The notes under the pieces: model-generated | What the model was told of the DNA's origin: nothing | The model's database searches: none | The model's input: only the letters and a program-made list of their open reading frames with translations | Made by a program: the position numbers and the translations under genes | Part shown: one piece after another, positions 7,556-28,682 of the stretch | Layout: every line of letters starts with the position of its first letter | Position numbering within the stretch: position 1 is the stretch's first letter | Assembly (NCBI GenBank): GCA_026195905.1 | Contig: JAPHRE010000040.1 | Span: 1,363-65,362, forward strand | Length of the DNA stretch: 64,000 nt | DNA from: Pseudopelagicola sp. | Lineage (GTDB): Bacteria; Pseudomonadota; Alphaproteobacteria; Rhodobacterales; Rhodobacteraceae | Direction of reading: 5' to 3'

Positions 7556-8758
7556 TCACCCTTTTAGAGTGCCGCCTTGCTCTGCAAAGGGTATATCCCT
7601 GCGCCCTGCGCCTGAGACGCCTTTGCCCGCGTCAACACAATCATCATGGATATCCGCAAACCCATCTCCAATCGCGCGGCCAAACCGTCTGAAGTGGCGC
7701 ACAATTGCATACTTTAGCGCGTAGCAGCCAAGGACAAACACCATAAGCCAGGTAAACGCCAACCCGTTATCGTGAATAGTCACAATTCCGATGCCAGCGG
7801 GAAGCGCAACCAATGGGAAAAGAATAATCGTCGTCAAAGGATTTGCTACGGCCTTGCTACCGTGGTGGTGCAAATTGGGTTCAATCGCCCGCATGATGAC
7901 ATGGTGAAAATGTAGCTTGTCCGGCGCACCAATCGGGGCTTTTTTTAAGACCCTGCGCCCGACTGCAGCCAGCGTGTCCATGAAAGGCCAGAAGACCGTC
8001 AAAAGCACCGACCAGCACGAGACATCTGGGTTCCGTGCGATCAGGAACACCCCCGCCCATGCAATCAGAAAGCCCACCAAATAGGCTCCGGCGTCCCCAA
8101 GAAAGAGCTTACCATACGGATAGTTCACGAAAAGCACCCCGAACACGGCGGCACCGACGCTTCCCGCCATTGCAGCAACAGGGTAGTCCCCAACGCTTAT
8201 CGCCATCAAGGTAAGTGAGCCTGCCGCCACAAGCGATATGCAAATCGCAAGCCCGTTCACACCGTCCACGAGATTGAACGCATGACACATCGCGGCCGTG
8301 ACAAAAATCGTAAAAAGCGCGCTCACAATATAAAATCCAAGCAGGTAATCCACACCCGGTGCAACGCCGGCATGGATCGTTTGCTTGGTCAAAAGCACCA
8401 TTATCAAGCCACTGAGCATGGCGGCAAAAAGACGATTTTTCGGGCTCGCATGAAACCCTGTATCCTCCATGAAACCGCCCAAGAACACGGGAACCGCAGC
8501 GAGAAGACCATACCAAAGAAGTCCGCCGTGCATATCTTGGGAGAAGTAAGCGCCAACAAAGAGTCCGGCAAGAACGGCCGCCCCACCAATGCGTGGTGTA
8601 GGAGCGTCATGCGCGCTTTGTATCGCCAAACCGCCATGCCCTTTGGCGGTCCGGTGGATATGCTTGGCCCGCGTCATAACGATCACGATGGACACTACGA
8701 GACTCGTCATGAAGACAGGAAGAAAGGAAATATACTGAGTTTCTAGAAACTGTGTCAT
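7556..8758 (-). CDS. MraY/WecA-family undecaprenyl-phosphate sugar-1-phosphate transferase
   Basis: TPRIGG, GFMEDT, FNLVDGVNGL, LFLGDAGAY, PDKLHFHH. The start is assumed at MTQF. Confidence 0.88.
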   Translation of the reverse strand: MTQFLETQYISFLPVFMTSLVVSIVIVMTRAKHIHRTAKGHGGLAIQSAHDAPTPRIGGAAVLAGLFVGAYFSQDMHGGLLWYGLLAAVPVFLGGFMEDTGFHASPKNRLFAAMLSGLIMVLLTKQTIHAGVAPGVDYLLGFYIVSALFTIFVTAAMCHAFNLVDGVNGLAICISLVAAGSLTLMAISVGDYPVAAMAGSVGAAVFGVLFVNYPYGKLFLGDAGAYLVGFLIAWAGVFLIARNPDVSCWSVLLTVFWPFMDTLAAVGRRVLKKAPIGAPDKLHFHHVIMRAIEPNLHHHGSKAVANPLTTIILFPLVALPAGIGIVTIHDNGLAFTWLMVFVLGCYALKYAIVRHFRRFGRAIGDGFADIHDDCVDAGKGVSGAGRRDIPFAEQGGTLKG

Positions 8759-9085
8759 CGTGACATTACACTTTGCGAAATCAATAAAACCGGATGCGCA
8801 CACGCGTTGCACTCAACCCAAAGCAGTAACAAAGATCCATGTCAAACTTGTGTCGTGCATTTATAGGCGTGATACTGCCGTCGGTCCGCCCGCACTCAGG
8901 AGTGCTCTAGGCTGCAGCGCGGAAACAATCTTAGGTAGATTTCCCTAATTTATCGCAAAATCACAAACAGTTGGGCGCGATCACACCCTCATAGACTCCG
9001 CAAGAATCGCCCCGCCGAACAGGCGTGTGGGCTCAAGCACATCCTCTTTGGGCTATGCGCTCTGCGATCAGCCCCGCAAAGCGGG

Positions 9086-11272
9086 TCAATCCTCCCGATT
9101 CGTATAACTATATCTGTAGTTGTAGTAATAATACTGGCTGTTCTTGGACTTCTTCGGATCGAAGGCGTTGAGGATCGCGCCGTTGATCTGAAGGCCCGCC
9201 ACCTCAAATGACTGCTTCAGCGCGTCGACCTCGCCCTCGGTCGTTTTTTCAAACCGGACGACGGCAAGGATCGACCCCGCCAACCGACCAAGAATAACCG
9301 GATCTGTTACCGCCAACGCGGGCGGGCAATCAAGGATAATGAGATCAAACTCCTCATCCAACGCCTGCAACATCGCCTCTGTAGCTGGCCGCATAAGAAG
9401 TTCAGAGGGGTTTGGCGGATAGAGGCCTGCCGGAATAAAGCTCAGCCCCTCGACATCCGTGCTGTGAACAACGCTCGCAAGATCGTGCTTGTCCGAAAGG
9501 TAATCGGCCAAGCCCAAGCTATCTTTCTTAAGGTCAAAATATTTGCGCAACTGCCCACGCCGCATATCAGCATCAACAAGGCATACCTTCTTACCCGATT
9601 GCGCGGCCACAACGGCCAAATTGACAGCGGTGAACGACTTACCGGCGCTTGGGGCGGAGCTCGTGATGGCCACGGATTTTGACCTGGCGTCCAGCATCCC
9701 GAAATAGAGGCTCGTGCGCAGGCTACGGAATGCCTCCACAGCAAGGTCGACCGGGCTCGCAACGGCAAGGATAGGCCAAGATTTCATGCGGCTATCATTC
9801 CCTTCCGCCGCCACCGTTTTGTTGATTGTCGCGAAAACCGGAATCCCAAGTGCCTCAATCTGTTCCGTGCTCTGGATGCCCTTTCTAAAGGCACCGCGCA
9901 AAAGAACAAAAGCTGTGCCAAGCATCAGGCCAAACATCAGAGAAATCGCGAGAATCATGCTCTTGCGTGGGGCGATTGGAGAGGGTTTAGCCTGCGCTGT
10001 ATCAAGGATACGCACATTGCCGATTGTGCTCGCCTTCAAGACGCGCAGCTCTTGAGCGCGGTTCAACAATTGCAGATATGTTTCTTCCGCCAGCTCGAGA
10101 CGTCGTGTCTTATCAAACACTTCGCGTTGCGTCTGGGGAAGTTCCTCAACTTCGTCCCGCAACACGGCGATCCTGTCTTCAATATGCGCTTTGTTATCAA
10201 GAAGCTGCTTATAAACCGGGTGTCTCGGGGTGTATTTCTCTTGAAGAGTCTGCTCCTCAAGCTGAATCTGGCTGAGTTCCGTCTCCAACTGACCGATCTG
10301 TGTCAGAAGACTCTGAGCTTCAAACCCGAGATCAATGGCCGTCTGCAACTGGCGGTATTCGTTGAGGTCGCGTTCTGCTTCGGCAACCGCGGCCTCAGCT
10401 TGTGGAAGCTGTCCCTCGATGAAATCGAGGCTGCTTTCGGCTTCCGCTGCGCTACGGGTCACGTTTTGCCCCAAGTATGCCCTTGTAATCGCGTGTAGAA
10501 TTTGGCGCGCGCGCTCTGGTGCGCTTGCCTGAAAGGTGACGAGCAAAATACCGGATTGCCGCCCCTTTTCCGACACGCCAGTTCTTGCCCTTAGGCTTGA
10601 AATTGCGGCACTTTCTGAAATCTGCCGAAGAATAAAGTGACGACCTGTTTTGGCCGCAACCTCGCCAACCTTGATGGCAAAATCAACGTCTGGCTCACGC
10701 AGAACAACGCCCGGCCGACCTGAAAGCACCTGCCCATCTGGAAGACGCACGTCAAACGCAGATCCCTCGCCCTTCACCAACGTAATCTCTTTGTTCAACC
10801 ACCGGGGCGGAACCTGCAGCAGGTCGACGCGGATCGCCTCGCCTCCACGCGCATAGGCACGCATAAACCCGACATCCGGCAACGGCAGGCTGACACGTGT
10901 CATGCCATACCCAACGACGGGGAAGTATTTCGGCTGCGCGATCCAGTCGAGATTCAAGTCCGCAACCGCTTTCCCCAAGACCATCCGTGACCGCATAATT
11001 TCGATCTCGGTCACACTTTGAGGTGCGTTCTCAACAAGGTCTGAGAGGCCGTCGGGCAAGGAAAGCTGGCCGCTTTTCTCTTCAAGCTGCAAGAGCGCAT
11101 CCGCCTGATAAGTCGGCGGCGTAATCAGCAGGTAGAAAACACCAAAGGCTACAGTCACAACGCTAAACAACACAATCCAGAGTTTGCCTGCCCAAAGGCT
11201 CAAGGCAAGCGCTGCCAGATCGATCTCGTCATCTTGCCCCACCGAGCCGGATGATGCGGGTTCTTTAGCCAT
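9086..11272 (-). CDS. wzc: Polysaccharide co-polymerase/tyrosine autokinase Wzc
   Basis: DEIDL N-terminus, two TM segments, EAFRSLRTSL, Walker A SSAPSAGKS, DADMRRG, Tyr-rich tail QYYYYNYRYSY. Confidence 0.93.
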   Translation of the reverse strand: MAKEPASSGSVGQDDEIDLAALALSLWAGKLWIVLFSVVTVAFGVFYLLITPPTYQADALLQLEEKSGQLSLPDGLSDLVENAPQSVTEIEIMRSRMVLGKAVADLNLDWIAQPKYFPVVGYGMTRVSLPLPDVGFMRAYARGGEAIRVDLLQVPPRWLNKEITLVKGEGSAFDVRLPDGQVLSGRPGVVLREPDVDFAIKVGEVAAKTGRHFILRQISESAAISSLRARTGVSEKGRQSGILLVTFQASAPERARQILHAITRAYLGQNVTRSAAEAESSLDFIEGQLPQAEAAVAEAERDLNEYRQLQTAIDLGFEAQSLLTQIGQLETELSQIQLEEQTLQEKYTPRHPVYKQLLDNKAHIEDRIAVLRDEVEELPQTQREVFDKTRRLELAEETYLQLLNRAQELRVLKASTIGNVRILDTAQAKPSPIAPRKSMILAISLMFGLMLGTAFVLLRGAFRKGIQSTEQIEALGIPVFATINKTVAAEGNDSRMKSWPILAVASPVDLAVEAFRSLRTSLYFGMLDARSKSVAITSSAPSAGKSFTAVNLAVVAAQSGKKVCLVDADMRRGQLRKYFDLKKDSLGLADYLSDKHDLASVVHSTDVEGLSFIPAGLYPPNPSELLMRPATEAMLQALDEEFDLIILDCPPALAVTDPVILGRLAGSILAVVRFEKTTEGEVDALKQSFEVAGLQINGAILNAFDPKKSKNSQYYYYNYRYSYTNRED

Positions 11273-11717
11273 TCTGCGCCCCTCCTTGCGGAGCCAATTT
11301 CTGCGCCCAGCCATCTGCTGCCGCTGCGATTTGTTCAAAAACAAGCTCATGGAAGTCCTCGGATCGACGGAATGGATCCGGAATTCCTTTGCGGTCTGTC
11401 CAGTGATCGAAAAGCATGACCTTTCCCGACAAATGCGGGCTGGACTCAGCAATCTTCTGTCGGTGATCCGGCTCCATGACCAGTATCAGGTCCGCGTTTT
11501 GGCCCAATTCCGGCGTGAATTGGCGGGCCGCATGGCCATCAACGGACACGCCATGACGCATCGCGATCTTCGCGGCGGTTTCATCCGCAGCATGCCCTAC
11601 CAAAGCACCAAGCCCGGCAGACTCGACGCGAACCCCATCAAGCTTTTCTTTCAAAACACGCTCTCCAACAGGAGATCGGCAGACATTGCCGATACACACA
11701 ACCAATACACGATTCAT
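11265..11717 (-). CDS. wzb: Low-molecular-weight protein tyrosine phosphatase Wzb
   Basis: VCIGNVCRSP active site and IPDP motif. Confidence 0.93.
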   Translation of the reverse strand: MNRVLVVCIGNVCRSPVGERVLKEKLDGVRVESAGLGALVGHAADETAAKIAMRHGVSVDGHAARQFTPELGQNADLILVMEPDHRQKIAESSPHLSGKVMLFDHWTDRKGIPDPFRRSEDFHELVFEQIAAAADGWAQKLAPQGGAQNG

Positions 11718-11733
11718 CTTGGCTCCTCTCGGG

Positions 11734-12798
11734 TCACGTATCTCCGAGATCGTCCACGTTTCCGACAGCCAACACGGTGGGCAAAAGGCCGGTAATCGTG
11801 TCGTTCCAACGGGTGAGCGGCGACCGAGTCACATATACCACATCTTCTGGGATAAGGCTGAACTCTGTGCCGAGCAACCACCCCTCGGGCGAACTTGTTT
11901 CAAGTTGGTAGACCGTAGTCCGCCCTCCCACATTGCGGAAAACAAACACGCCGCGCGCATCTGCCCGCACTTCTTTCAGCCCGCCTTGGTTGGCAAGTGC
12001 TTGCGTCAGGTTAACCTGCTCTTTCGCGAGATCAACGACACTGGGCTTGCCGACTTCGCCAAGAATATAGGCCTGCTCATTGCGCAACTCCGGCACATGC
12101 ACGACATCCCCTTTATGCAGGATCGGATTGTTCTGCATGTAGTTAGCGCGCAAAAATCCATTAAGGTCGACGACATACGTGCGTCCGTTCCGCTTGACCG
12201 TGATCCGGCTCAAATCAGCATCTTCGGTGGCCCCGCCTGCCGCATTAATCGCTTGAAACAGGGTCAACGGCACGGTGTTCAAGGTCTGCTTGTTAGGTTG
12301 GTTAACCTCGCCGCCGACAAGGACATTCTGTGAATTGAATTCTGCCACACGGGCCACGACCTGCGGTTCGGGGATGATCAGGCGGAGCTTTTGCGAAAGA
12401 TCGCTGCGCACCTGTTCAATGGACCGTCCCTTCGCCTCGATTTCGCCGATGTGGGGGTAGAAAAACCGACCATCCGCCTGAACGCGGAAGCCGTTTTCGC
12501 TTGCCGTCCTGTCCGGTCCCGCCGGCATGGTCAACTCGGGGTGATCATAGACATCTATGCTGAGAATATCGCCCGGCCCGATCGTGTAGGCCCAAGATGT
12601 TTGATACGGTAGACGCGTGCGCGATACGGGTTTGATCGGCTGCGTATAGTTCTTGATATTCCGCGAGCTGAGCCGAACCACATCAAGCTCACTCTCAAGA
12701 TTGTCCTGCCCCTGCTCATCGACGGGGAAAACGGTAAATCCGTCGGTGCAGGCCGCCAAGAAGAAAGCACAAACAAATAAATTAAATACAATCTTCAA
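11734..12798 (-). CDS. wza: Outer-membrane polysaccharide export lipoprotein Wza
   Basis: Lipobox FLAAC, YTIGPGDIL...VYDHPEL, FFYPHIG, SLBB repeats; TTG start after GGAG. Confidence 0.9.
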   Translation of the reverse strand: MKIVFNLFVCAFFLAACTDGFTVFPVDEQGQDNLESELDVVRLSSRNIKNYTQPIKPVSRTRLPYQTSWAYTIGPGDILSIDVYDHPELTMPAGPDRTASENGFRVQADGRFFYPHIGEIEAKGRSIEQVRSDLSQKLRLIIPEPQVVARVAEFNSQNVLVGGEVNQPNKQTLNTVPLTLFQAINAAGGATEDADLSRITVKRNGRTYVVDLNGFLRANYMQNNPILHKGDVVHVPELRNEQAYILGEVGKPSVVDLAKEQVNLTQALANQGGLKEVRADARGVFVFRNVGGRTTVYQLETSSPEGWLLGTEFSLIPEDVVYVTRSPLTRWNDTITGLLPTVLAVGNVDDLGDT

Positions 12799-18406: not shown

Positions 18407-19294
18407 ATGTCGATGAATAGAAACACGCCCCCCCCGCCAAAGCAGTGCGCCTGGCATGTGGATGGCCTGCGCATGACCGGCCTCTGTTGGGGGCCGCAAG
18501 AGGGTCGAAAAGTGCTCGCCCTGCATGGCTGGATGGATCACGCTGCGAGCTTTCAGGAACTCGCCCCGCGCCTGACAGGCTGCCATGTTGTCGCCCTCGA
18601 TCTCAGCGGTCAGGGGTTAAGCTCTCATAGATCGCCCGATGCGACCTATAATATCTGGGACGACCTGCCCCAGATTGCAGAAATCCTCGATCAACTAGGC
18701 TGGCGTGACTGCGTTCTCATCGGGCATTCCCGAGGCGCGAATATCGCCGCCCTCTTCGCCGCTGCACTCCCTGAGAAAGTGCGTGGATTTGTGGCGCTGG
18801 ATTCCCTCGCCCCGGAACCAAACGAGGCGTCGGTCGCCGCGACCTTACGCGCCTTTGTCCAACAAACGCGCACGCAAAAAAATCGGCAGCCCCGTGTGTT
18901 TGAGACACAAGAAAGCTATGTCGACCGCCGCTGTGCGCAGGGCAATAGCCGCCACACATCCCAAGCACTTGCCGAGCGCGCCTTGAAGAAAACCCCGGAT
19001 GGCTACCAAATGCGCGGCGATCCCCGGCTCTTTGCAAGCTCAGCGATTAAGCTCACGCAACAAGACGTCGAAGATGTCCTGCGCGCCATCCAATGTCCGG
19101 TGCTCAATATCTGGGCCACGGACGGCATCAAAAGCAACCGCCCCAAGGTTGAGGAACTCATGCAACTCGGCGAGGCGGTGATCGAAAATTACGAACGGCG
19201 AGACTATCCCGGCGACCATCATTTTCATCTCGACCCCGATACCGCCCAGCAGATCGCCGCCGCCGTTTTGGATTTTCTAGACCGGACCCAATGA
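18407..19294 (+). CDS. Alpha/beta-fold hydrolase
   Basis: LHGWMDHAASF, nucleophile elbow GHSRG, C-terminal GDHHFH. Confidence 0.88.
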   Translation: MSMNRNTPPPPKQCAWHVDGLRMTGLCWGPQEGRKVLALHGWMDHAASFQELAPRLTGCHVVALDLSGQGLSSHRSPDATYNIWDDLPQIAEILDQLGWRDCVLIGHSRGANIAALFAAALPEKVRGFVALDSLAPEPNEASVAATLRAFVQQTRTQKNRQPRVFETQESYVDRRCAQGNSRHTSQALAERALKKTPDGYQMRGDPRLFASSAIKLTQQDVEDVLRAIQCPVLNIWATDGIKSNRPKVEELMQLGEAVIENYERRDYPGDHHFHLDPDTAQQIAAAVLDFLDRTQ

Positions 19295-19312
19295 TCGGTC
19301 CCCTGCCCGCCC

Positions 19313-20302
19313 CTATGTATCCGCCTCAAGCAGGTCAACAATAGCCCCCGTCGCCCGCGCACCAAGATGCACTTCACCAATGTGACAGGTGACACTGGCC
19401 GCCTTGGATTGCCGCGGCGCGTAGAGCACGGCGCGCGGGTCCGTCGATCGCACCGCAACATCAAGCGCCGTGCACAAGAGCGGCTGTTGATCCGCGGGAT
19501 ACATCAGATGATCCGCGAAACGCTCACAGAAAACCCGTTTGTTGATCACCACAGCGTCGCGGTGCTCTGCATGATTCATCAACACCGGCTCGAGCGACAA
19601 AATCGCATGATACGGACCTGTCGTCTTTTTGTCTGCATAGGTCGAAAGGGCAGCAATCATATCGTCCACTTCATTGGACGCCTCACAAGAGTATGAGATG
19701 AACCCCGCCCCGGTCAGCCCAAACAGCCCCTTGCACGAACTGAACGCCGCAACCTGCGCGACGTCATGCCCGGCCTCAAGCCCGATGGACGCCGTTGCAT
19801 CAAGCGCCAGTTTCGCGCCAACCCGTTTACTCAATGCGGCAAGGCCATCAATCGGCACCAATATGGCCTCGCTGGTTTCTGCGTAGACCGCGAGAACCCA
19901 ATCATATGTGCCGCTCACCGCGTCCAATTGCTGCCAATCGACGACATCGACCTTCCGAATGAACCCATCACGACGCATCCGGCTATTGGCAATCGCCTGA
20001 AGGCGTTGGGCGTAATACCCCGAATTGACGACCAGAACATCGCCATAAAGAAAGTTCGCAATCATGACCTCAATGGCGCTGGTGCCGGACCCCTGCATCG
20101 CTACGGTTTTCGATTGCCCCGCCAAATCGGAGATCATGCCAAGGACATGCGCATAACTATCAAGAAACGCCTGATCCCCGCGACCAAAGCACGGACGCAA
20201 CGCGGCAACATTGCCATAGACCAGACTTGCCGGCCCCGCCGTAAAAAGGGGTTTATCGGCATTGAAACTCTCAATCGTTTCAACGGTAAGGGTATCAGTC
20301 AT
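19313..20302 (-). CDS. Class V PLP aminotransferase, probable 2-aminoethylphosphonate-forming transaminase (divergent)
   Basis: LFTAGP, QGSGTSAIE, LDATAS, PLP lysine in SSCKGL; start overlaps the end of ppd. Confidence 0.75.
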   Translation of the reverse strand: MTDTLTVETIESFNADKPLFTAGPASLVYGNVAALRPCFGRGDQAFLDSYAHVLGMISDLAGQSKTVAMQGSGTSAIEVMIANFLYGDVLVVNSGYYAQRLQAIANSRMRRDGFIRKVDVVDWQQLDAVSGTYDWVLAVYAETSEAILVPIDGLAALSKRVGAKLALDATASIGLEAGHDVAQVAAFSSCKGLFGLTGAGFISYSCEASNEVDDMIAALSTYADKKTTGPYHAILSLEPVLMNHAEHRDAVVINKRVFCERFADHLMYPADQQPLLCTALDVAVRSTDPRAVLYAPRQSKAASVTCHIGEVHLGARATGAIVDLLEADT

Positions 20303-21440
20303 GGGGTCGTCCAATAGCGGCCATAAAGGCGGTTTTACTCTCGGCAGGTGTGGCTTTGGGGCGCCCGAGATCGGATCTTGCACCGGGGGCCACCATAATT
20401 TCGACAAAGCTCGCATGATCCGCAGCCTTCGCCGCCTCTAACGCCGGCCCAATATCTGCGAGCCTCGTGATGCGTTGGGCCGTTTTATATCCAAGCCCTT
20501 TGGCAACCTCTGTGAGCTTGGCATCCGGCCCTGCTGTGACCTGTCCGCCCACAGAATCATGAACTTGGTTGTTAAAGACAATGTGGATCAGGTTCGCTTG
20601 TCTGGCAGAGGTCGCAAGGCTACCCGTATGCATCAAGATCGCACCATCCCCATCAAGACAAGCGACCTTGCGAGCAGGATCGCCCAGCGCAATACCGGTT
20701 GCAATCATCGCCGCGTGTCCCATACCGCCCACCGAAAGAAATGACGGCCCGCCAAGCCCCTCTCCCTGCTGTAACTCATAAACCTCACGAGAGATTTTCC
20801 CCGTCGTCCCGACAAGCGGCATGTCGCCCAAACTTGTAAGGGCGCATTTGATGGCCTCTTCGCGCAGTGGAAAATCCGACATCTCCTGCGGCGGCTTTGT
20901 GGGCGTCGAGAAGGTATTCTTACGTATGACCAACGCCGTAGGCTTTGTCTCTGCCATCGCCGTTCTCAAGAGGTCTTCCGCCGCATCGTGGGCCGCCCCC
21001 AACGCATCGTCCGGGCCGATAACCCGATAGGGAATATCCAGAATATCAAGCACCTCACATGTGATTTCGCCCTGAAAAACATGCTGCGGCTCATCCTTGA
21101 TCTGGCCGAGCGCGGTCATCTCACCGCGCCAACCCACAAGCAAAAGCATGGGAATACCATAGACCTTGGGCGACGCCAGCGACGTCAGAGGGTTGACTGC
21201 ATTGCCCAACCCGGAATTTTGCATAAACACGACAGAGGGGGCGCGCGTACCGAGATACTGACCAATCGCAAGACCAACCGCCGCGCCCTCATCTGCGGCA
21301 ATCTCCAATAAACAGTTACCCTGTTCTGCCCTCGCCTCCAGCCCAACAATAAGGCTGCTGAGAAGCGAATCCGGCACACCAAAATAACTCTGCACACCAA
21401 ACCGCGCCAATGCGCCAAGAAAACCTTCCGAGTCGACCAT
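20295..21440 (-). CDS. aepY: Phosphonopyruvate decarboxylase (AepY/Ppd)
   Basis: GVPDSLL, DEGAAVGLAIG, MQNSGLGNAVNPL, GWRGE...DEPQH, SVGGMGHA, CLDGDGA, HDSVGGQ. Confidence 0.93.
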   Translation of the reverse strand: MVDSEGFLGALARFGVQSYFGVPDSLLSSLIVGLEARAEQGNCLLEIAADEGAAVGLAIGQYLGTRAPSVVFMQNSGLGNAVNPLTSLASPKVYGIPMLLLVGWRGEMTALGQIKDEPQHVFQGEITCEVLDILDIPYRVIGPDDALGAAHDAAEDLLRTAMAETKPTALVIRKNTFSTPTKPPQEMSDFPLREEAIKCALTSLGDMPLVGTTGKISREVYELQQGEGLGGPSFLSVGGMGHAAMIATGIALGDPARKVACLDGDGAILMHTGSLATSARQANLIHIVFNNQVHDSVGGQVTAGPDAKLTEVAKGLGYKTAQRITRLADIGPALEAAKAADHASFVEIMVAPGARSDLGRPKATPAESKTAFMAAIGRPHD

Positions 21441-22735
21441 TACGCTGTTCCCGGAATGAGCTTCAGGATTTGTTTGATGGAAATGATGTCATCTTCGATT
21501 TCAGCCGTGCGACCATTGATCAAAATCGAACGCGCCACCATATCCATCGCCTTGTAGGACGCGCGCAGCATGTGATTGGCATAAATGATGACCTTGACGC
21601 CATGCGCCTGCAATTCGTAATCGTGCACCGTATTGTAGGACGATGGCACTACGACAATGGGAATATCCGGGTGACTGGCCCGGAACTGATCCGTGAACGA
21701 AAAAACTTCGTCCGGTTCTTTTTCTTTGGAATGGATCATAACCGCACCCGCACCCGCCCGAACATAGGCGTCGGCCCGCATCAATGCATCATCCACCCCC
21801 TGCCCGAGGATAAGGCTCTCCAGGCGCGCGATGATCATCATGCCGTTGTACTTCTGGCCCTCGATACCGGCGCGAATCTTGTCCGAGAACTCTTCAATGC
21901 TGGCTTGGGTCTGCGGCACATCAGTGCCAAGCAACGAGTTTTTCTTAAGCCCCGTCTTGTCCTCGATGATTGCGGCCGCAATGCCCATCCGCTCCATCGT
22001 GCGCACCCGCAATTCAAAATGCTCGGCTTTGCCGCCCGTATCTGCATCCATAACCAAGGGTTTGGTTGTGACCTCGAAAATCTCATCAATATTTTGTAAC
22101 CGGCGCGAGATATCCAGGGCTTCGATATCAGGCAGCCCCATTTCCGTGCTATCGGTCAGTGAACTAGACCAAAATCCGTCAAATTGCAGCGTCTTACCAT
22201 TCCGCTCCACCTGCAGGTTTTCACCGATAAGCGCGGCAAGCGGGCTGTGGGCTTCTAGGATACGTACAAGGCGATGCGATTGCATCAACCGCCGGAACGC
22301 CTTTTGGCGGGCATACGGCGATGCGAGCGCCGCTGTCATCTGTGGTGCGATGCTCGCGTTGTCGAATTCATGGCTATAGGGCAATTCGACAAATGTGCCG
22401 CCGTAGCTATTCAATTTTTGGACCACGCGGTCGCGTAGACCCTGCAATGGCCCATCCCACTTGTCACCATGCACAAAAACCTTGGGTTGGTATTTGTCCA
22501 AGACGTCATCAAACTCCCATGCGTCCTGTGCAACCACCTCATCGACACAATCCAGAGACTCAAGGATTTCGCGGCGCTGCTCAAAGGATAAAAGCGGCAA
22601 AGCCTTTTTGTTTTCAAGGGCTTGATCAGTCAAAAGACCGACCGTCACGCGCCCGTGCCGCTTGGCTTCCTTCAGAATCCGAAGATGCCCGTTGTGAAGG
22701 ATTTCCATCGTCATACTGACGTATACTTCAGTCAA
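21440..22735 (-). CDS. pepM: Phosphoenolpyruvate mutase with N-terminal cytidylyltransferase domain (AepX/PepM)
   Basis: N-terminal HNGH cytidylyltransferase motif; LEAHSPLAA, WSSSLTDS, DADTGG, and the diagnostic EDKTGLKKNS; TAATG-coupled to ppd. Confidence 0.95.
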   Translation of the reverse strand: MTEVYVSMTMEILHNGHLRILKEAKRHGRVTVGLLTDQALENKKALPLLSFEQRREILESLDCVDEVVAQDAWEFDDVLDKYQPKVFVHGDKWDGPLQGLRDRVVQKLNSYGGTFVELPYSHEFDNASIAPQMTAALASPYARQKAFRRLMQSHRLVRILEAHSPLAALIGENLQVERNGKTLQFDGFWSSSLTDSTEMGLPDIEALDISRRLQNIDEIFEVTTKPLVMDADTGGKAEHFELRVRTMERMGIAAAIIEDKTGLKKNSLLGTDVPQTQASIEEFSDKIRAGIEGQKYNGMMIIARLESLILGQGVDDALMRADAYVRAGAGAVMIHSKEKEPDEVFSFTDQFRASHPDIPIVVVPSSYNTVHDYELQAHGVKVIIYANHMLRASYKAMDMVARSILINGRTAEIEDDIISIKQILKLIPGTA

Positions 22736-23013
22736 AATTCCCGCCCCATCATTTTTTCAGATTTGACAATATCTTGCCCCCCAACGTAACGCCACCCCGC
22801 CACGACAGCCTTGGCACCATCTATACTGCGGCGCGTCTTCGGGTTTGCAAGCATTGGTATTTGCGGGTGCGATATGAACGCAAGCGTAAGAACCGCAAGC
22901 GCCGCCATTTGAGAGGCCCGAGGCAATATGAAATGCCTGTTCTCAGGGGCCGTATGAGGTGCCCCTCATTTCTGAGGGTCAGCATCGACAAAATTCAGAC
23001 CACCGCATAAAAA

Positions 23014-23029
23014 GTTAACAATAAATTAA
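23014..23029 (-). promoter_or_regulatory. CtrA binding site, TTAA-N7-TTAAC
   Basis: The minus strand reads TTAA-TTTATTG-TTAAC, an exact consensus match, ending ~20 bp upstream of the NRPS-like ATG. Confidence 0.6.
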
Positions 23030-23048
23030 TAATCATAGGCGCGACAGT

Positions 23049-25415
23049 ATGAACGGCTTTTCACCGCTGAGCAGCATGGATGCTTTCTTGGAAGCGACCG
23101 CCAGCCGCTGGGCCAAGATGCCAGAAAAGATTGCCCTCAAAGAGGGGGATCAGGCGCTCAAATTTTTCGAGCTGGAAGCGCGGGCCAATTGCATGGCGCG
23201 CAAGCTTGTCGCCAATGGTGTCGGGATCGGCGAGTTCGTCGGCTACCTGGGGCCGACAGGCATTCCCTTCGTTGTGACATGTTGGGCCTGTTTGAAGGCT
23301 GGGATGACCTTCATGCCAATCAGCCCAAAGTTTCCTGACAAAAGCGTGGTCGATATTTTGACGACCGCAAACGCGAAGGCCTTCGTTTCAGACCGCATTT
23401 TGTCCATCGTCGACGCGAAATTCTGTCAGATGGGTTTACCCGATGAAGAGGAAGATACACAGCCATACCATGCCGCGAACGTCCCCGCGACAGTCCTTGC
23501 AGCTGCAAGCACCACATCTGGAAGCACGGGCATTCCCAAGATTTCAGGCGAAACCAGAGAGATCAAAGCGACCGTCGCCTTGCAATATCTTGAGATGACC
23601 GACCTCGGTGATCGCTCTATTTTCGGCCATTGTGGAACATTGTCGATCCCGTGGCTGCTGGCTGCGCTCCACGCCGGAGCTTGTGTGACCTGCTATGATG
23701 CCGCGGCTGGCTCTGCTCAAGCCTTGTTCGATTGGTTGAAGACCGACAAAGTCACGCATTGGCATAACTACCCTGCGCTATATCGGACACTTTGCGACGT
23801 AGACGGGGCGTTGCCCGATTTGGAAACTCTGGTGCTATGTGGCGAGCCGATATTCCGACACGATTTTGAGCTGTTTGAGCGACTAACCCGACCCGGAGCG
23901 ACCCTTTTTAATATCTATGCCCAGCAGGAGTATTCTCTTGGCGCTGCCTTTGAAATCCGCAACGGAGAACGTCTGGCATTCGACAAGATTCCGGTAGGTC
24001 GGGTTATTGGCGAAAACGATCTGCAAATCTTGGATGAAGATGGCAAGCCGGTCGGACCTCGCGGGATTGGCGAGATCACGCATCGGTCCTTGCGAGTGCC
24101 GGAGGGCTATGTCGGCAACCCCGAGCGCAGCGCACAAGCCTTTGGAGCGGGTGCCGACGGCGTGCGCAGTTTTGCGACGGGCGATCTTGGCTACTTTGAC
24201 AAGGAAGGCTTGCTGCATTTCGTCGGGCGCAAAGATGATCGGGTCAAAATCCGCAATTTCAACGTGTATCCGGCGGATATCGAACAGGAAATCAAGCCGC
24301 ACCCGGAGGTGGACGCGGTGGCGGTCACCGTCAAATACTGCGCGCGGAACCTGCCTCGGCTGGCCTGTTTTTATGAAGGCGCGGTGGCACCCGCAGATTT
24401 GAAGGCGTGGCTGAGCGACCGTATCTCGGCATTCATGATGCCGCAGTTCTTCGTGCCGGTTAAAGCCCTCCCCAGAACGATGACAGGGAAATTGCAACGC
24501 AACCGGCTGGACCTTCCCCAAAATGTCTCGGACGCCGAGCGCATACCTGCGCGCACCCCCACTGAACAGGCGCTGACAGAGGTTTGGCAGGATATTCTCG
24601 GCCATGAGGATTTCGGCGTGGCGGATAATTTCTTCGATGTCGGCGGGGACAGCCTGCGGGCGATGGAGTTGCTCCTGTTGATGAACAAGCGGTTCGGACG
24701 CCTCTTGACGCTCGATCAGGTCATCATGGCGGAGGCGAGCATTCAGGGCGTTGCAGAATTGATTGAGGCCAACGCGGAGCGGTCGCAACTGCGCCTGCTC
24801 AAGCCCGGCGACAGCAAGACGCATATCGTTGTTGGCCATGTTTATGGAGGTGGGGTGACAGATTACCTCGACTTTGCCCGCGCCACTGGCGGCGAAATCC
24901 GAGTTTCGGGAATCTGCGCCGATTATTCGCAACGCAACCGCGCCTATCCGATCCGGCAAAAGGCCAAGGAAGCCGCAAGCCACGTGCCAAACGATCCGGC
25001 GACTGTGATGATGGGGTATAGCTATGGCGGTCGGATTGCCTTTGAAATTGCCCAACTCATGGGGGCCGGCGGGCGGATCGTTCTGGTGGACCCGATCGGG
25101 CCGTTCAGCAACCGATTGATACATTGGCTAGAAGACATTGCCAAAAAGCTCGTGATGCCCCGCTCCGAATTGGGGACAGAGCGGAATTACCTTGGCGATT
25201 TTGTCTACCGGCCCAAACCGCTCAGGACTGCGGGCGCGCTATTGATAACCTGCGAGACTTCCCACAAGGAAGATATCATAGGCTGGTCAGCGGCACTGGA
25301 CGGGCCGGTCGAGGTTCTTGAGGTTCCGGGAACGCACTGGGACATCCTGCGCGGTGCCAATGCCATTGAGGTTGCCAACAAAGTGCAGGACTGGCTGACA
25401 CGCGCGCCCACGTAG
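23049..25415 (+). CDS. Standalone NRPS-like protein, adenylation-thiolation-thioesterase (A-T-TE)
   Basis: TSGSTGIPK, FATGDLG, GRKDDRVKIR, LPRTMTGKL; PCP motif FFDVGGDSL; TE motifs GYSYGG, LVDP, GTHW. Confidence 0.88.
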   Translation: MNGFSPLSSMDAFLEATASRWAKMPEKIALKEGDQALKFFELEARANCMARKLVANGVGIGEFVGYLGPTGIPFVVTCWACLKAGMTFMPISPKFPDKSVVDILTTANAKAFVSDRILSIVDAKFCQMGLPDEEEDTQPYHAANVPATVLAAASTTSGSTGIPKISGETREIKATVALQYLEMTDLGDRSIFGHCGTLSIPWLLAALHAGACVTCYDAAAGSAQALFDWLKTDKVTHWHNYPALYRTLCDVDGALPDLETLVLCGEPIFRHDFELFERLTRPGATLFNIYAQQEYSLGAAFEIRNGERLAFDKIPVGRVIGENDLQILDEDGKPVGPRGIGEITHRSLRVPEGYVGNPERSAQAFGAGADGVRSFATGDLGYFDKEGLLHFVGRKDDRVKIRNFNVYPADIEQEIKPHPEVDAVAVTVKYCARNLPRLACFYEGAVAPADLKAWLSDRISAFMMPQFFVPVKALPRTMTGKLQRNRLDLPQNVSDAERIPARTPTEQALTEVWQDILGHEDFGVADNFFDVGGDSLRAMELLLLMNKRFGRLLTLDQVIMAEASIQGVAELIEANAERSQLRLLKPGDSKTHIVVGHVYGGGVTDYLDFARATGGEIRVSGICADYSQRNRAYPIRQKAKEAASHVPNDPATVMMGYSYGGRIAFEIAQLMGAGGRIVLVDPIGPFSNRLIHWLEDIAKKLVMPRSELGTERNYLGDFVYRPKPLRTAGALLITCETSHKEDIIGWSAALDGPVEVLEVPGTHWDILRGANAIEVANKVQDWLTRAPT

Positions 25416-25466
25416 ACAACCAAAGCAAAGCCGGGCGGGCACGCAAACGATGCCTAAACTCATAGA

Positions 25467-25807: not shown

Positions 25808-26815
25808 CTACCCGCCAAGGGCAGACATATGGCGCGACACAGCAGGGCGCGTCATGTTTGACATATCAAAACTGTGCCGCTCAGGTTTTGTTGCGAGGGC
25901 TGCGCGGATCGCATCTGTCACCGCGTGTTCGGATGTGCGCAACGCTGTGCGCAGATCAACCGAGCCTTCATCCCCCATGCAAGTATAAAGCCGTCCTGTG
26001 CAACTGACGCGGACACGGTTGCAAAGCGAACAGAAGTTGCATGACATCGGCGAAATGAAACCCAGTTGACCGCCTGTCTCGCCGACCTGCATGTAGCGCG
26101 CCGGCCCGCCCGAACTGCGCCGACTGGGCGTCAATGTCCAGCGGCGCGCAAGAGCGGCCTGCACGTCACACAGCGAGAGTACGCTCTGGCTGCGGTCAAG
26201 GCCCGTCTCGCCCAGCGGCATTTCCTCGATCAAGGTCAGGTCCATACCACGCGCATGCGCAAAGCGGATCAACGCGTCGACTTCCCCTTCAAAGGCACCG
26301 CGGCTGGCGACCGCGTTGAGCTTGACTTTCAGCCCACAAGCCAGAGCCGCATCAATGCCCTCATGCACACGGGCGATATCCCCCAGCCGCGTCAAGGCGC
26401 GAAAACGCGCGCCGTCCAGCGTATCAAGCGATATATTGACCCGTTTCACCCCACAGGCGGCCAGCGCCTCGGCGTGTTTGGCCAGTTGCGTGCCATTGGT
26501 TGTCAGCGTCAACTCGTCCAGCGCACCGGATTTGACATGCTGCGAGAGGTCGCGAAATAGCGCGATGACATCCGGGCGCACCAATGGTTCGCCCCCTGTC
26601 AGGCGCAGTTTACGCACGCCCCGGCGTATGAAAATGTCACTGAGCCGCGCCAGTTCCTCAAGATCAAGAACATCGCGCCGTGGCAGAAAGGTCATCTTTT
26701 CCGCCATGCAATAAGTGCAGCGCAGATCACAGCGGTCTGTCACAGAAAGTCGCAGATAGCTTACCGTGCGGCCAAAACTATCAACAAGAGGGGCGGGATT
26801 GGCATCAAGCGGCAT
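25808..26815 (-). CDS. moaA: GTP 3',8-cyclase MoaA
   Basis: LRLSVTDRCDLRCTYC, LTGGEPL, CNFCSLCNRVR, C-terminal GG. Confidence 0.95.
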   Translation of the reverse strand: MPLDANPAPLVDSFGRTVSYLRLSVTDRCDLRCTYCMAEKMTFLPRRDVLDLEELARLSDIFIRRGVRKLRLTGGEPLVRPDVIALFRDLSQHVKSGALDELTLTTNGTQLAKHAEALAACGVKRVNISLDTLDGARFRALTRLGDIARVHEGIDAALACGLKVKLNAVASRGAFEGEVDALIRFAHARGMDLTLIEEMPLGETGLDRSQSVLSLCDVQAALARRWTLTPSRRSSGGPARYMQVGETGGQLGFISPMSCNFCSLCNRVRVSCTGRLYTCMGDEGSVDLRTALRTSEHAVTDAIRAALATKPERHSFDMSNMTRPAVSRHMSALGG

Positions 26816-27332
26816 TGCGGGCCTCTCGGGTTTGGTGGAACCATGTCAGAACAATGTCTTGGGTCATGGGCAGATCACAGGACAGCCCGGCCCCAAATTC
26901 GGCCCAAGCCTCTTCATAGGTCGGGCGCACCGCGATCAGCACGGGCACATCCAGCTCGATCGCTCGGCTGATCAACTCACGAAAACCACGCCCCTCGCTT
27001 TCGCCACGACCAAACCGGTTAAGGATCAACAGGTCTGCGCCCTCTTCAAGCTCTGCCTCGATGAAAGAGGAACATTGCGCCAGCGCCCCCGGATGCAGAC
27101 GGCACCCCTGCGAGCCATTGCCCAGGGGTTGCGAAATACGAAAGACACGTGACGAGCCGAGCGTGGTCAGGTCCATGTCGGCGCAATGGCACGCACCGCC
27201 CTCAGCCCCGCGCGTCTGCAGTGCGCCGCGTATACGGTATCCATCGGATATCAGTGTCCGGGCAACTTTGCTAAGAAACCCGTCAATATCGTCATGCTCA
27301 AAGCGCACGGCAGCGAGGGGAAAGAAGGTCAT
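26805..27332 (-). CDS. DUF2478-family protein (P-loop-like, molybdenum-associated)
   Basis: ISQPLGNGSQGCRLHPGAL, LILNRFGRGESEGRGFR; ATGA-coupled to moeA. Confidence 0.75.
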   Translation of the reverse strand: MTFFPLAAVRFEHDDIDGFLSKVARTLISDGYRIRGALQTRGAEGGACHCADMDLTTLGSSRVFRISQPLGNGSQGCRLHPGALAQCSSFIEAELEEGADLLILNRFGRGESEGRGFRELISRAIELDVPVLIAVRPTYEEAWAEFGAGLSCDLPMTQDIVLTWFHQTREARNAA

Positions 27333-28600
27333 GATATGTATCCTCCTTGGCAAAATGGGCGCCAGAAAAGTGGCGCATCGGGTGTTATTTCGCAGCACTC
27401 TGCGGGCACGATGGCAAGGCCATCCGCGCCGCCAAGCGGTAGCAAGGTTGCCGATACGCTCTGCCCCAGACGGTTCAGAACCGGCAGGCCTGCGCTGGTG
27501 TAGCTGGCAAGGCGCACGGGAAAGACTTCGGCGCGGCCCGACTTGCGCACCCACTCAAATCCAGCCACTGCAGGAACAGGCGCAAAGGTTTCGGGGGACG
27601 CACCAAGCAGACGGTCGAGTTGCGGGCGCACAAACATGTGAAAGCCCACAAACACGGCAAAGGGATTTCCGGGCAGCCCAGTAAAAGCCGCCGCGCCCAA
27701 GCTTCCAAACATCACCGGCTTGCCCGGTTTAAGCGCAACGCGCCAGCCGTGCACGGTTCCGCCAGCCGCTATGAAAGCGCTGCGAATATGATCTTTGCCA
27801 CCCATCGACACGGCACCAGAGGACAGGATCAGATCGAAACCGGCCTCCAGCCCGGCAAGTGCGGCGGCGGTGATGTGTGGATCATCGGGCAATATCCCCA
27901 GATCAGTGACCTCCGCGCCCGCTTGCTGCGCAAGTGCCAGCAACATCGGGCGGTTGGCATCGTGAATTTGACCTGGTGCACGTGGCCCCTGGCCCAGCTC
28001 ATCGCCCGTGGAAAAGACCGCAATACGGGGCCGCCGCACAGCCTCGATCGCGTCCATACCATTGGCGGCGAGCAGACCGATATGATGCGCCCCTACGCGG
28101 TTGCCTGCTTCAAGCAATACCTGACCGGCATCCTGATCACTTCCCGCGCGGCGAATGTTTGCGCCCGGTTTGGGCGGGCTGGAAAAATGCACCTTGCGGG
28201 TCTTGTCGATACAGGCTTCAATCATGGCGACCGCGTCGGCACCTTTGGGCAGCGGCGCGCCAGTGTAGATGCGCATGGCCGCGCCTTCGGGCAGATCGCA
28301 AGGCGCATCACCGGCGGCGACAGTGCCCGCAACGGGCAGGCAGCAACGCCCCTTCAGATCGCTCAGGCGCAGGGCGAAACCGTCCATCGCGGAGTTGTCA
28401 AAGAAGGGCATCGCAGAGGGCGCGATCACATCCGTAGCGGCGGTGCGCCCGATAGCCTGCGCCAGCGGCACGATCTCGCGGTCGTGGATCGGGAATAGAT
28501 TGGCCAGCGCCAGATCGCGCGCAGCCGACAGGCTCAAGAGTCTTTGCATCTCGGCAAGATCATCACAGCCGCAGCCAGTTGAAACATGAGTGCCGTCCAT
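27329..28600 (-). CDS. moeA: Molybdopterin molybdotransferase MoeA
   Basis: FDNSAMDGFA, RIYTGAPLP, STGDEL, SGAVSMG, KPGKP, GLPGNP. Confidence 0.95.
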   Translation of the reverse strand: MDGTHVSTGCGCDDLAEMQRLLSLSAARDLALANLFPIHDREIVPLAQAIGRTAATDVIAPSAMPFFDNSAMDGFALRLSDLKGRCCLPVAGTVAAGDAPCDLPEGAAMRIYTGAPLPKGADAVAMIEACIDKTRKVHFSSPPKPGANIRRAGSDQDAGQVLLEAGNRVGAHHIGLLAANGMDAIEAVRRPRIAVFSTGDELGQGPRAPGQIHDANRPMLLALAQQAGAEVTDLGILPDDPHITAAALAGLEAGFDLILSSGAVSMGGKDHIRSAFIAAGGTVHGWRVALKPGKPVMFGSLGAAAFTGLPGNPFAVFVGFHMFVRPQLDRLLGASPETFAPVPAVAGFEWVRKSGRAEVFPVRLASYTSAGLPVLNRLGQSVSATLLPLGGADGLAIVPAECCEITPDAPLFWRPFCQGGYIS

Positions 28601-28682
28601 GAGTGCCTCCTGCAACACGTCAGAATTTTTTTTTGGGGGGGGAGATGGATGCGGCGGCGCAGGGCAGCCGCATCCTATGTCG

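Follow-up and report, generated by a model that had tools for sequence, protein, structure and literature searches.

Phosphonates form a large pool of the phosphorus dissolved in seawater, and roseobacters tend to be regarded as consumers of these compounds rather than as producers. Here we compare with the closest described systems a three-gene operon, predicted to make 2-aminoethylphosphonate (AEP), that lies on the minus strand (22735..19313) of a 64,000-nucleotide stretch of DNA, referred to as the window, from a genome listed as Pseudopelagicola sp. (assembly GCA_026195905.1, contig JAPHRE010000040.1). The locus adds a rare phosphonate-producer genotype in the marine roseobacter Shimia.

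Fusion of a phosphoenolpyruvate (PEP) mutase to a cytidylyltransferase domain is a familiar arrangement. Among non-redundant PEP mutases 23.6% are fused to PF01467, and Fom1 is the characterised example (Rice et al., 2019, PMC6697681). Fom1, from the fosfomycin pathway of Streptomyces wedmorensis (5X3D), has an N-terminal PF01467 cytidylyltransferase (CyTase) domain with an HxGH motif and a C-terminal PEP mutase (PepM), as does the product of gene 1 in the window. However, the substrate that Fom1 activates is 2-hydroxyethylphosphonate, the product of an alcohol dehydrogenase, whereas the third gene of the window operon encodes an aminotransferase and AEP would be expected; a PYTPGI-type motif in Fom1 is also replaced by PYSHEFD in the window protein. 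The same fusion occurs in AepX-AepY-AepZ of Bacteroides fragilis, a three-gene AEP core of PepM-PF01467, phosphonopyruvate decarboxylase (Ppd) and aminotransferase (PMC8942020; PMC6697681), and the PF01467-Ppm, Ppd and aminotransferase core has been described as gene cluster family 743 of B. fragilis (Li and Horsman, 2022, PMC8942020). The architecture is already catalogued and common, and the window operon is an ordinary member of this known class. It differs from AepX-AepY-AepZ in that its aminotransferase does not belong to the TIGR03301 PhnW-AepZ family and scores below the PF00266 threshold, and in that no glycan genes are adjacent.

Other systems share the logic of the pathway. In Treponema denticola the PntC-AEPT protein Tde1415 of the Pnt pathway (6PD1/6PD2) likewise combines an aminotransferase that forms AEP with a cytidylyltransferase that forms CMP-AEP, but in the window genome the PntC-like gene lies apart from the operon, and fusions within the gene 3 family use PF01467 rather than PF12804. 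The Burkholderiales_CDP-OH clusters (Li and Horsman, 2022) also contain genes for Ppm, Ppd, an aminotransferase, two cytidylyltransferases (one of them Ppm-fused) and a CDP-alcohol transferase. There they make up one locus of seven genes with a 2-oxoglutarate dioxygenase, whereas in the window genome the genes are split between two contigs (C49 and C77), the triad moves independently and no dioxygenase was seen beside it, which places the operon outside that group. Gene 3 shares with the AEP:pyruvate transaminase PhnW (1M32, 7E7G, 9KK8) the class-V fold, the lysine and aspartate that serve pyridoxal phosphate (PLP) and a TxPxH motif, but it is about 35 residues shorter, is only ~20% identical and stands in a biosynthetic rather than a catabolic context. 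Against this background the new points are modest, namely an unrecognised aminotransferase family, the reduction to a triad whose fused domain is altered, the triad's independence from a neighbouring A-T-TE gene and a co-occurring, unlinked PntC-like locus.

We consider it probable that the three genes form one translationally coupled AEP operon, the product of which is used via CMP-AEP and a transferase locus on contig C77. The PepM domain of gene 1 would isomerise PEP to phosphonopyruvate, which Ppd would convert to phosphonoacetaldehyde, and the short class-V aminotransferase encoded by gene 3 would turn this into AEP, as its fold, PLP residues and synteny suggest. The PEP mutase reaction is unfavourable and is pulled forward by Ppd, the reaction of which is irreversible. 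AEP and cytidine triphosphate would then give CMP-AEP through the PepM-fused Fom1-type domain, the unlinked PntC-like enzyme of C77, or both, and a CDP-alcohol phosphotransferase-family protein of C77 may pass the phosphonyl head group on to an acceptor, either a lipid or a glycolipid. A first-pass annotation of the window had proposed the route from PEP through phosphonopyruvate to phosphonoacetaldehyde, and probably on to AEP, and this agrees with the family scores, with the conserved catalytic residues and with gene order in related loci. On family membership and conserved residues the first two steps are secure; the third is well supported.

The operon is confirmed as real and intact, with three abutting open reading frames (ORFs) that form one overlapping gene series where the annotation had put them. 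The stop codon of gene 1 and the start codon of gene 2 share a nucleotide in the sequence TAATG (1-nt overlap at 21440), and the end of gene 2 overlaps the start of gene 3 by 8 nt in ATGACTGA (20295-20302). These overlapping start and stop codons make the three genes translationally coupled, as had been claimed. Upstream, 313 bp (22736..23048) separate the operon from the divergent A-T-TE gene and presumably hold its promoter; a GGGGCGGG stretch lies directly before the TTG start codon of gene 1. No sigma-70 consensus was found in these 313 bp, and a scan for promoters and terminators gave no signal exceeding the shuffled background.

Gene 1 (21440..22735, minus strand; TTG start at 22735, TAA stop at 21440-21442) encodes a cytidylyltransferase-PEP mutase fusion of 431 amino acids, with PF01467 at residues 10-93 and PF13714 at residues 147-405. 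Annotations for Shimia sp. FJ5 and Pseudooceanicola include homologues of the same length. The PEP mutase domain (residues 147-431; 21443..22297, minus strand) takes the protein past the NCBI equivalog threshold of TIGR02320 (387.6 bits, cut-off 319.55), and the Ppm-specific motif EDKxxxxxNS is present as EDKTGLKKNS at residues 258-267. In an alignment to Mytilus PepM (1m1b), D58, D85, D87, E114, K120, N122, S123, R159 and H190, which we take to be the catalytic and Mg-binding residues and which agree with the letters at those positions of the 1m1b chain, are identical in gene 1. W44, S46 and L48 are likewise kept, and the position of G47 is occupied by Ser. Defective catalytic residues had been named beforehand as a possible refutation of the pathway, and none was seen.

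Gene 2 (20295..21440, minus strand; 381 amino acids) also passes its equivalog threshold, scoring 390.7 bits on TIGR03297 phosphonopyruvate decarboxylase (cut-off 312.5). Both thiamine diphosphate-binding domains (PF02776 and PF02775) are present, and the thiamine diphosphate motif GDG...NN can be read in the protein. A catabolic role for the operon was considered and rejected, as neither PhnJ (C-P lyase) nor a canonical PhnW/AepZ was found in the window genome and the Ppd step runs in one direction.

Gene 3 (19313..20302, minus strand) is less easily assigned. The annotation had correctly recognised the gene and its end at 19313, but its start at 20416 is replaced by the ATG at 20302, which is almost certainly the true start because all homologues of ~330 residues begin there, giving a protein of 329 amino acids. 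This protein falls below the PhnW/AepZ equivalog cut-offs (70.1 bits against 360.8 for TIGR03301, 48.3 against 400.8 for TIGR02326) and even below the threshold of PF00266 (Aminotran_5; 16.3 bits against 21.5), so it is not filed as PhnW/AepZ. The PLP lysine K191 (SSCKGLFG) and aspartate D168 (DATASIGLE) are nonetheless invariant in 61 homologues. K191 lines up with the PhnW lysine, and the family profile aligns with PhnW through the TxPxH motif. An AlphaFold model of the protein (pLDDT 95) has as its best PDB fold matches the AEP transaminases 7e7g, 1m32 and 9kka (TM 0.73-0.75). From sequence and model we would place gene 3 as an AEPT-like enzyme of a separate family, not as a member of TIGR03301, and its fold, PLP residues and strict synteny lead us to predict that it makes AEP from phosphonoacetaldehyde.

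The family of gene 3 is large, with more than 1,180 clusters at 90% identity; at 50% identity and E<=1e-30, 1.84 billion representatives yielded 91 clusters. Most of its members match no Pfam model and go by the name 'hypothetical protein'. A module that is very common in marine and fresh waters, found in SAR11, Methylophilaceae and roseobacters, thus has an aminotransferase that escapes both the Pfam and the TIGRFAM thresholds. The AEP branch in one inventory of phosphonate gene clusters is defined by PF00266 (Li and Horsman, 2022, PMC8942020), and inventories built in this way would leave such clusters unclassified.

In at least six protein clusters (P0127, P0136, P0143, P0149, P0166 and P0173) a canonical PF01467 cytidylyltransferase, with HHGH and PRTEGISS, is fused N-terminally to an aminotransferase of the gene 3 family, as a PF01467 counterpart of the PntC-AEPT fusion; the PLP lysine is apparently lost in P0173. 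These fusions bear on whether gene 3 is something other than a simple phosphonoacetaldehyde transaminase, acting on another substrate such as a CMP-linked intermediate and giving a product other than AEP. Its distance from PhnW and the conserved C-terminal motifs peculiar to the family (QPxLCT, PR and CHxGE) would suit such a role. So would three SAR11 single-cell genomes (L087, L092 and L109), in which the aminotransferase and a canonical small cytidylyltransferase stand together among htrA, hflKC and thyX with neither PepM nor Ppd within 10 kb. We regard this alternative as improbable, however, as the top sequence and fold matches of gene 3 are AEP transaminases, the PLP residues and PhnW-like TxPxH motif are conserved, and the cytidylyltransferase fusions mirror a characterised PntC-AEPT protein. 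The aminotransferase also lacks PepM and Ppd nearby in two actinobacterial metagenome-assembled genomes (MAGs; L053 and L055), where no small cytidylyltransferase was seen beside it. For all five of these orphan aminotransferases, either pepM lies elsewhere in the genome or the enzyme has a PepM-independent role.

Gene order in related loci shows what the window operon has kept and what it lacks. A scan of species-representative genomes gave a comparative set of 80 loci, and gene neighbours were counted in the 77 that were clustered. The gene 3-family aminotransferase has Ppd as a neighbour in 68 of these 77 loci and the cytidylyltransferase-PepM fusion in 65, and in 63 loci a fourth gene comes next, encoding a stand-alone canonical PF01467 cytidylyltransferase of ~136 amino acids with HHGH and PRTEGISS. 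Further frequent partners are an S-adenosylmethionine (SAM) methyltransferase (32 loci) and a TagF-like PF04464/TPR protein (31 loci), and SAR11 loci add genes for B12-radical-SAM, PhyH, NeuB, DegT and epimerase proteins. The triad of the window is a reduced form of this widespread four-gene core, which normally has a second, canonical cytidylyltransferase. The Rhodobacterales sequences form a long, well supported branch of the aminotransferase tree (SH-aLRT 99) that comprises the window, Shimia aestuarii, a Pseudooceanicola MAG, two 'Rhodobacter sp.' MAGs and a further MAG, L037. The second cytidylyltransferase is absent from the whole clade; the first five members have the triad only, and in L037 the genes after the aminotransferase are those for ATP-grasp, PF12804 nucleotidyltransferase, PhyH and ABC-2 proteins. 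A search of the window genome found no second PF01467 enzyme, no TagF-like PF04464 protein and no partner methyltransferase. The PhyH and radical-SAM partners of other lineages were considered as partners here and rejected, as none is encoded in the window genome.

The cytidylyltransferase domain of the operon is the one fused to PepM (gene 1 residues 1-134; 22334..22735, minus strand). The annotation's fused HxGH cytidylyltransferase is indeed there, with a PF01467 match of 54.9 bits (cut-off 21) and the motif HNGH at residues 14-17, and it aligns with the CyTase domain of Fom1 (PDB 5x3d; E 2e-25, 40% identity over 121 residues). The five Rhodobacterales fused domains have HNGH, HGDKW and PYSHEFD, whereas nearly all others, and Fom1, have HHGH, HGDDW and PYTxG(I/V)SS. 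The C-terminal nucleotide-binding motif, which reads RTxGISTT in GCT and PYTxG(I/V)SS in fused Ppm domains, is thus replaced by PYSHEFD, followed in these five sequences by N, G, T or S; at this place Fom1 has PYTPGI. The altered motif is invariant across the Rhodobacterales clade, which suggests a function that has changed rather than been lost. Ratios of nonsynonymous to synonymous substitution (dN/dS) from unsaturated pairs lie between 0.03 and 0.17 in the fused domain and between 0.07 and 0.16 in PepM, indicating purifying selection and similar constraint, although synonymous sites were saturated in most pairs and the ratio for the cytidylyltransferase domain comes from 4 of 10 pairs only. 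Such selection implies that the fused domain is functional in some way, perhaps not as a standard cytidylyltransferase.

An operon that yields only free AEP would account for some of these features. The fused domain would then be structural, regulatory or otherwise catalytic, and AEP would be stored, excreted or used without CMP activation. The replacement of the usual motifs, including the substrate-loop motif HGDKW, in all five Rhodobacterales sequences agrees with this, as does the lack of a second PF01467 enzyme, TagF-like transferase and methyltransferase in the genome. HxGH has moreover been lost from the PepM-fused domains of several SAR11 and SAR116 loci (L066, L079, L080, L097, L099, L102, L107 and L110), which read HHAH, HHGI, NLGH, NDGH or ILSKSN instead, so that catalysis appears dispensable in some lineages. 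We nevertheless think it unlikely that AEP is the end of the pathway in the window genome, as the fused domain keeps HxGH and is constrained as much as PepM, its altered motif does not vary, and a PntC-like enzyme that could in principle activate AEP is encoded in all triad-bearing Rhodobacterales genomes examined. In the SAR11 and SAR116 loci that have lost HxGH, the stand-alone cytidylyltransferase is retained in all but L107, and the fused domain may be decaying or repurposed.

The PntC-like enzyme belongs to a compact locus (L134) outside the window, at C77:46219-52844, and is unlinked to the operon on contig C49. The locus encodes an ABC exporter, a membrane protein of the Frag1 family, a CDP-alcohol phosphotransferase-family membrane protein with a DxxDGxxAR...GxxxDxxxD motif, an FGGY sugar kinase, a GT4 glycosyltransferase and a PF12804 protein of 249 amino acids. 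The last of these matches T. denticola PntC (6pd1) with an E value of 2e-36 and 38% identity over 236 residues, compared with 6e-9 for LicC (1jyk). In PntC the glutamates E104 and E196 contact the amine of AEP, and LicC has aspartate there (PMC6697681). Both glutamates are kept in the C77 protein, which by its sequence is nearer PntC than LicC and may be regarded as a PntC-type enzyme.

Of 34 Shimia genomes 13 have the PntC-like gene, among them both with PepM. It also occurs in all four of the other triad-bearing Rhodobacterales genomes, but in only 8 of 400 genomes sampled evenly across the order (~2%); this last search scored the top three candidates per genome and agreed with the Shimia survey in 11 of 11 overlapping genomes. 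In S. aestuarii the gene lies 10 kb from the triad. The C77-type locus is syntenic in two of three triad genomes examined, and in the third the stretch that was read contains only the GT4 and PntC-like genes. The C77 locus is the best candidate for AEP activation and transfer, and would point to a lipid or glycolipid acceptor. It offers a concrete and testable candidate for the acceptor step.

Several points weigh against a pathway that runs from the operon through CMP-AEP to the C77 locus. The aminotransferase lies so far under the PhnW/AepZ cut-off that its substrate has to be inferred, and with PYSHEFD in place of (R/Y)TxG(I/V)SS and HGDKW in place of HGDDW the fused domain may not be a normal cytidylyltransferase. 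Of the 13 Shimia genomes with the PntC-like locus, 11 lack PepM, and the locus therefore works without endogenous AEP and must also act on something else, for example scavenged AEP or a phosphate ester. It may have another substrate. Its FGGY kinase, GT4 and PIP-synthase-like members would equally suit a pathway unrelated to phosphonates, and the co-occurrence of triad and PntC-like gene amounts to only three or four independent lineages.

The distribution of the two loci also admits a more specific reading, which we put forward tentatively as a possibility. Some roseobacters may make an undescribed AEP membrane lipid or glycolipid by a split pathway, in which the conserved PntC-like locus can act on scavenged AEP or a look-alike substrate and an optional, horizontally mobile triad supplies AEP where it is present. 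The fused domain, with its HNGH, HGDKW and PYSHEFD, would have changed its role after the second cytidylyltransferase was lost.

In most other lineages the module lies within glycan clusters with TagF-like transferases, which raises the question of whether AEP or CMP-AEP decorates an exopolysaccharide or capsule in the window genome too. Genes for a Glycos_transf_4 (GT4-family) protein, a Wzc-type tyrosine kinase and a Wza-type export protein make up a small set for polysaccharide export (window 7556-12798, minus strand), 6.5-15 kb from the operon, and an unrecognised transferase could complete the pathway. One candidate is a weak LicD-family ORF with a DxD motif (CDGTLLG...GDGDID) at C74:3307-3990 on the minus strand, which lies directly downstream of lepA and overlaps its stop codon. 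We hold polysaccharide decoration to be decidedly unlikely. An unrelated ABC transporter, of the Bmp/PnrA type, intervenes between the export set and the operon, export genes are not found near the triad elsewhere, and there is no PF04464 protein in the genome. The LicD-like ORF is real but weak, and it was rejected as the transferase, as it is also present in two Shimia genomes without PepM (G005 and G024).

Immediately around the operon lie an alpha/beta hydrolase gene (18407-19294, plus strand) and a stand-alone A-T-TE gene (23049-25415, plus strand), the neighbours named in the first-pass annotation. The annotation had also noted that no phosphonate transferase adjoins the operon, and this holds; moreover, in none of the 80 related loci does a homologue of any flanking gene of the window lie less than 10 kb from the module. 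The head-to-head arrangement of the operon and the A-T-TE gene across their shared intergenic region might suggest that the two, perhaps with the hydrolase, build a new phosphonate small molecule, for instance an AEP that is acylated or linked to a peptide. A 19-nt inverted repeat at 19294-19312 and 25433-25451, imperfect with 15 of 19 positions complementary, also brackets the block formed by the operon and the A-T-TE gene (19313-25415), but it is no better than 20 similar pairs within 7.3 kb and so is probably a product of chance. Two Shimia genomes without PepM encode homologues of the A-T-TE protein (55-59% identity) in other gene contexts, and no A-T-TE gene was found near the triad in S. 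aestuarii or the other triad genomes. A joint product is on this distribution highly improbable, and A-T-TE and hydrolase were rejected as partners of the triad: the presence of A-T-TE in PepM-less genomes and the lack of recurring flanks make both neighbours by accident. The genes beside the A-T-TE homologues in those two Shimia genomes have orthologues, 70-93% identical, on contig C54 of the window genome, so the A-T-TE gene of the window is unusually divergent or separately acquired.

The triad behaves as a portable, accessory cassette, with PepM in just 2 of 34 Shimia genomes. The S. aestuarii copy (identities 87%, 67% and 80%) lies between a Na/Pi cotransporter gene and rlmL, whereas the window genome has at this site an integrase-bearing island (C77:36800-44530), and the site looks like an integration hot spot. 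The island encodes a tyrosine recombinase, a HATPase-like protein of 647 amino acids and a nucleoside-phosphorylase-like protein of 329 amino acids. The Pseudooceanicola MAG and the two 'Rhodobacter sp.' MAGs provide three further settings, giving five unrelated contexts in the Rhodobacterales. Around the window operon the search for insertion marks found flanking repeats at chance level only, and no tRNA gene nearby. An empty site was also sought through the neighbouring moaA. The moaA and moeA genes of the window (25808-28618, minus strand), which stand beside a gene for trimethylamine N-oxide (TMAO) reductase, are second copies, and the closest moaA in five Shimia genomes is a paralogue with 53-55% identity. 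With only this distant paralogue on offer in the relatives, the region from ~18 to 36 kb of the window looks accessory as a whole.

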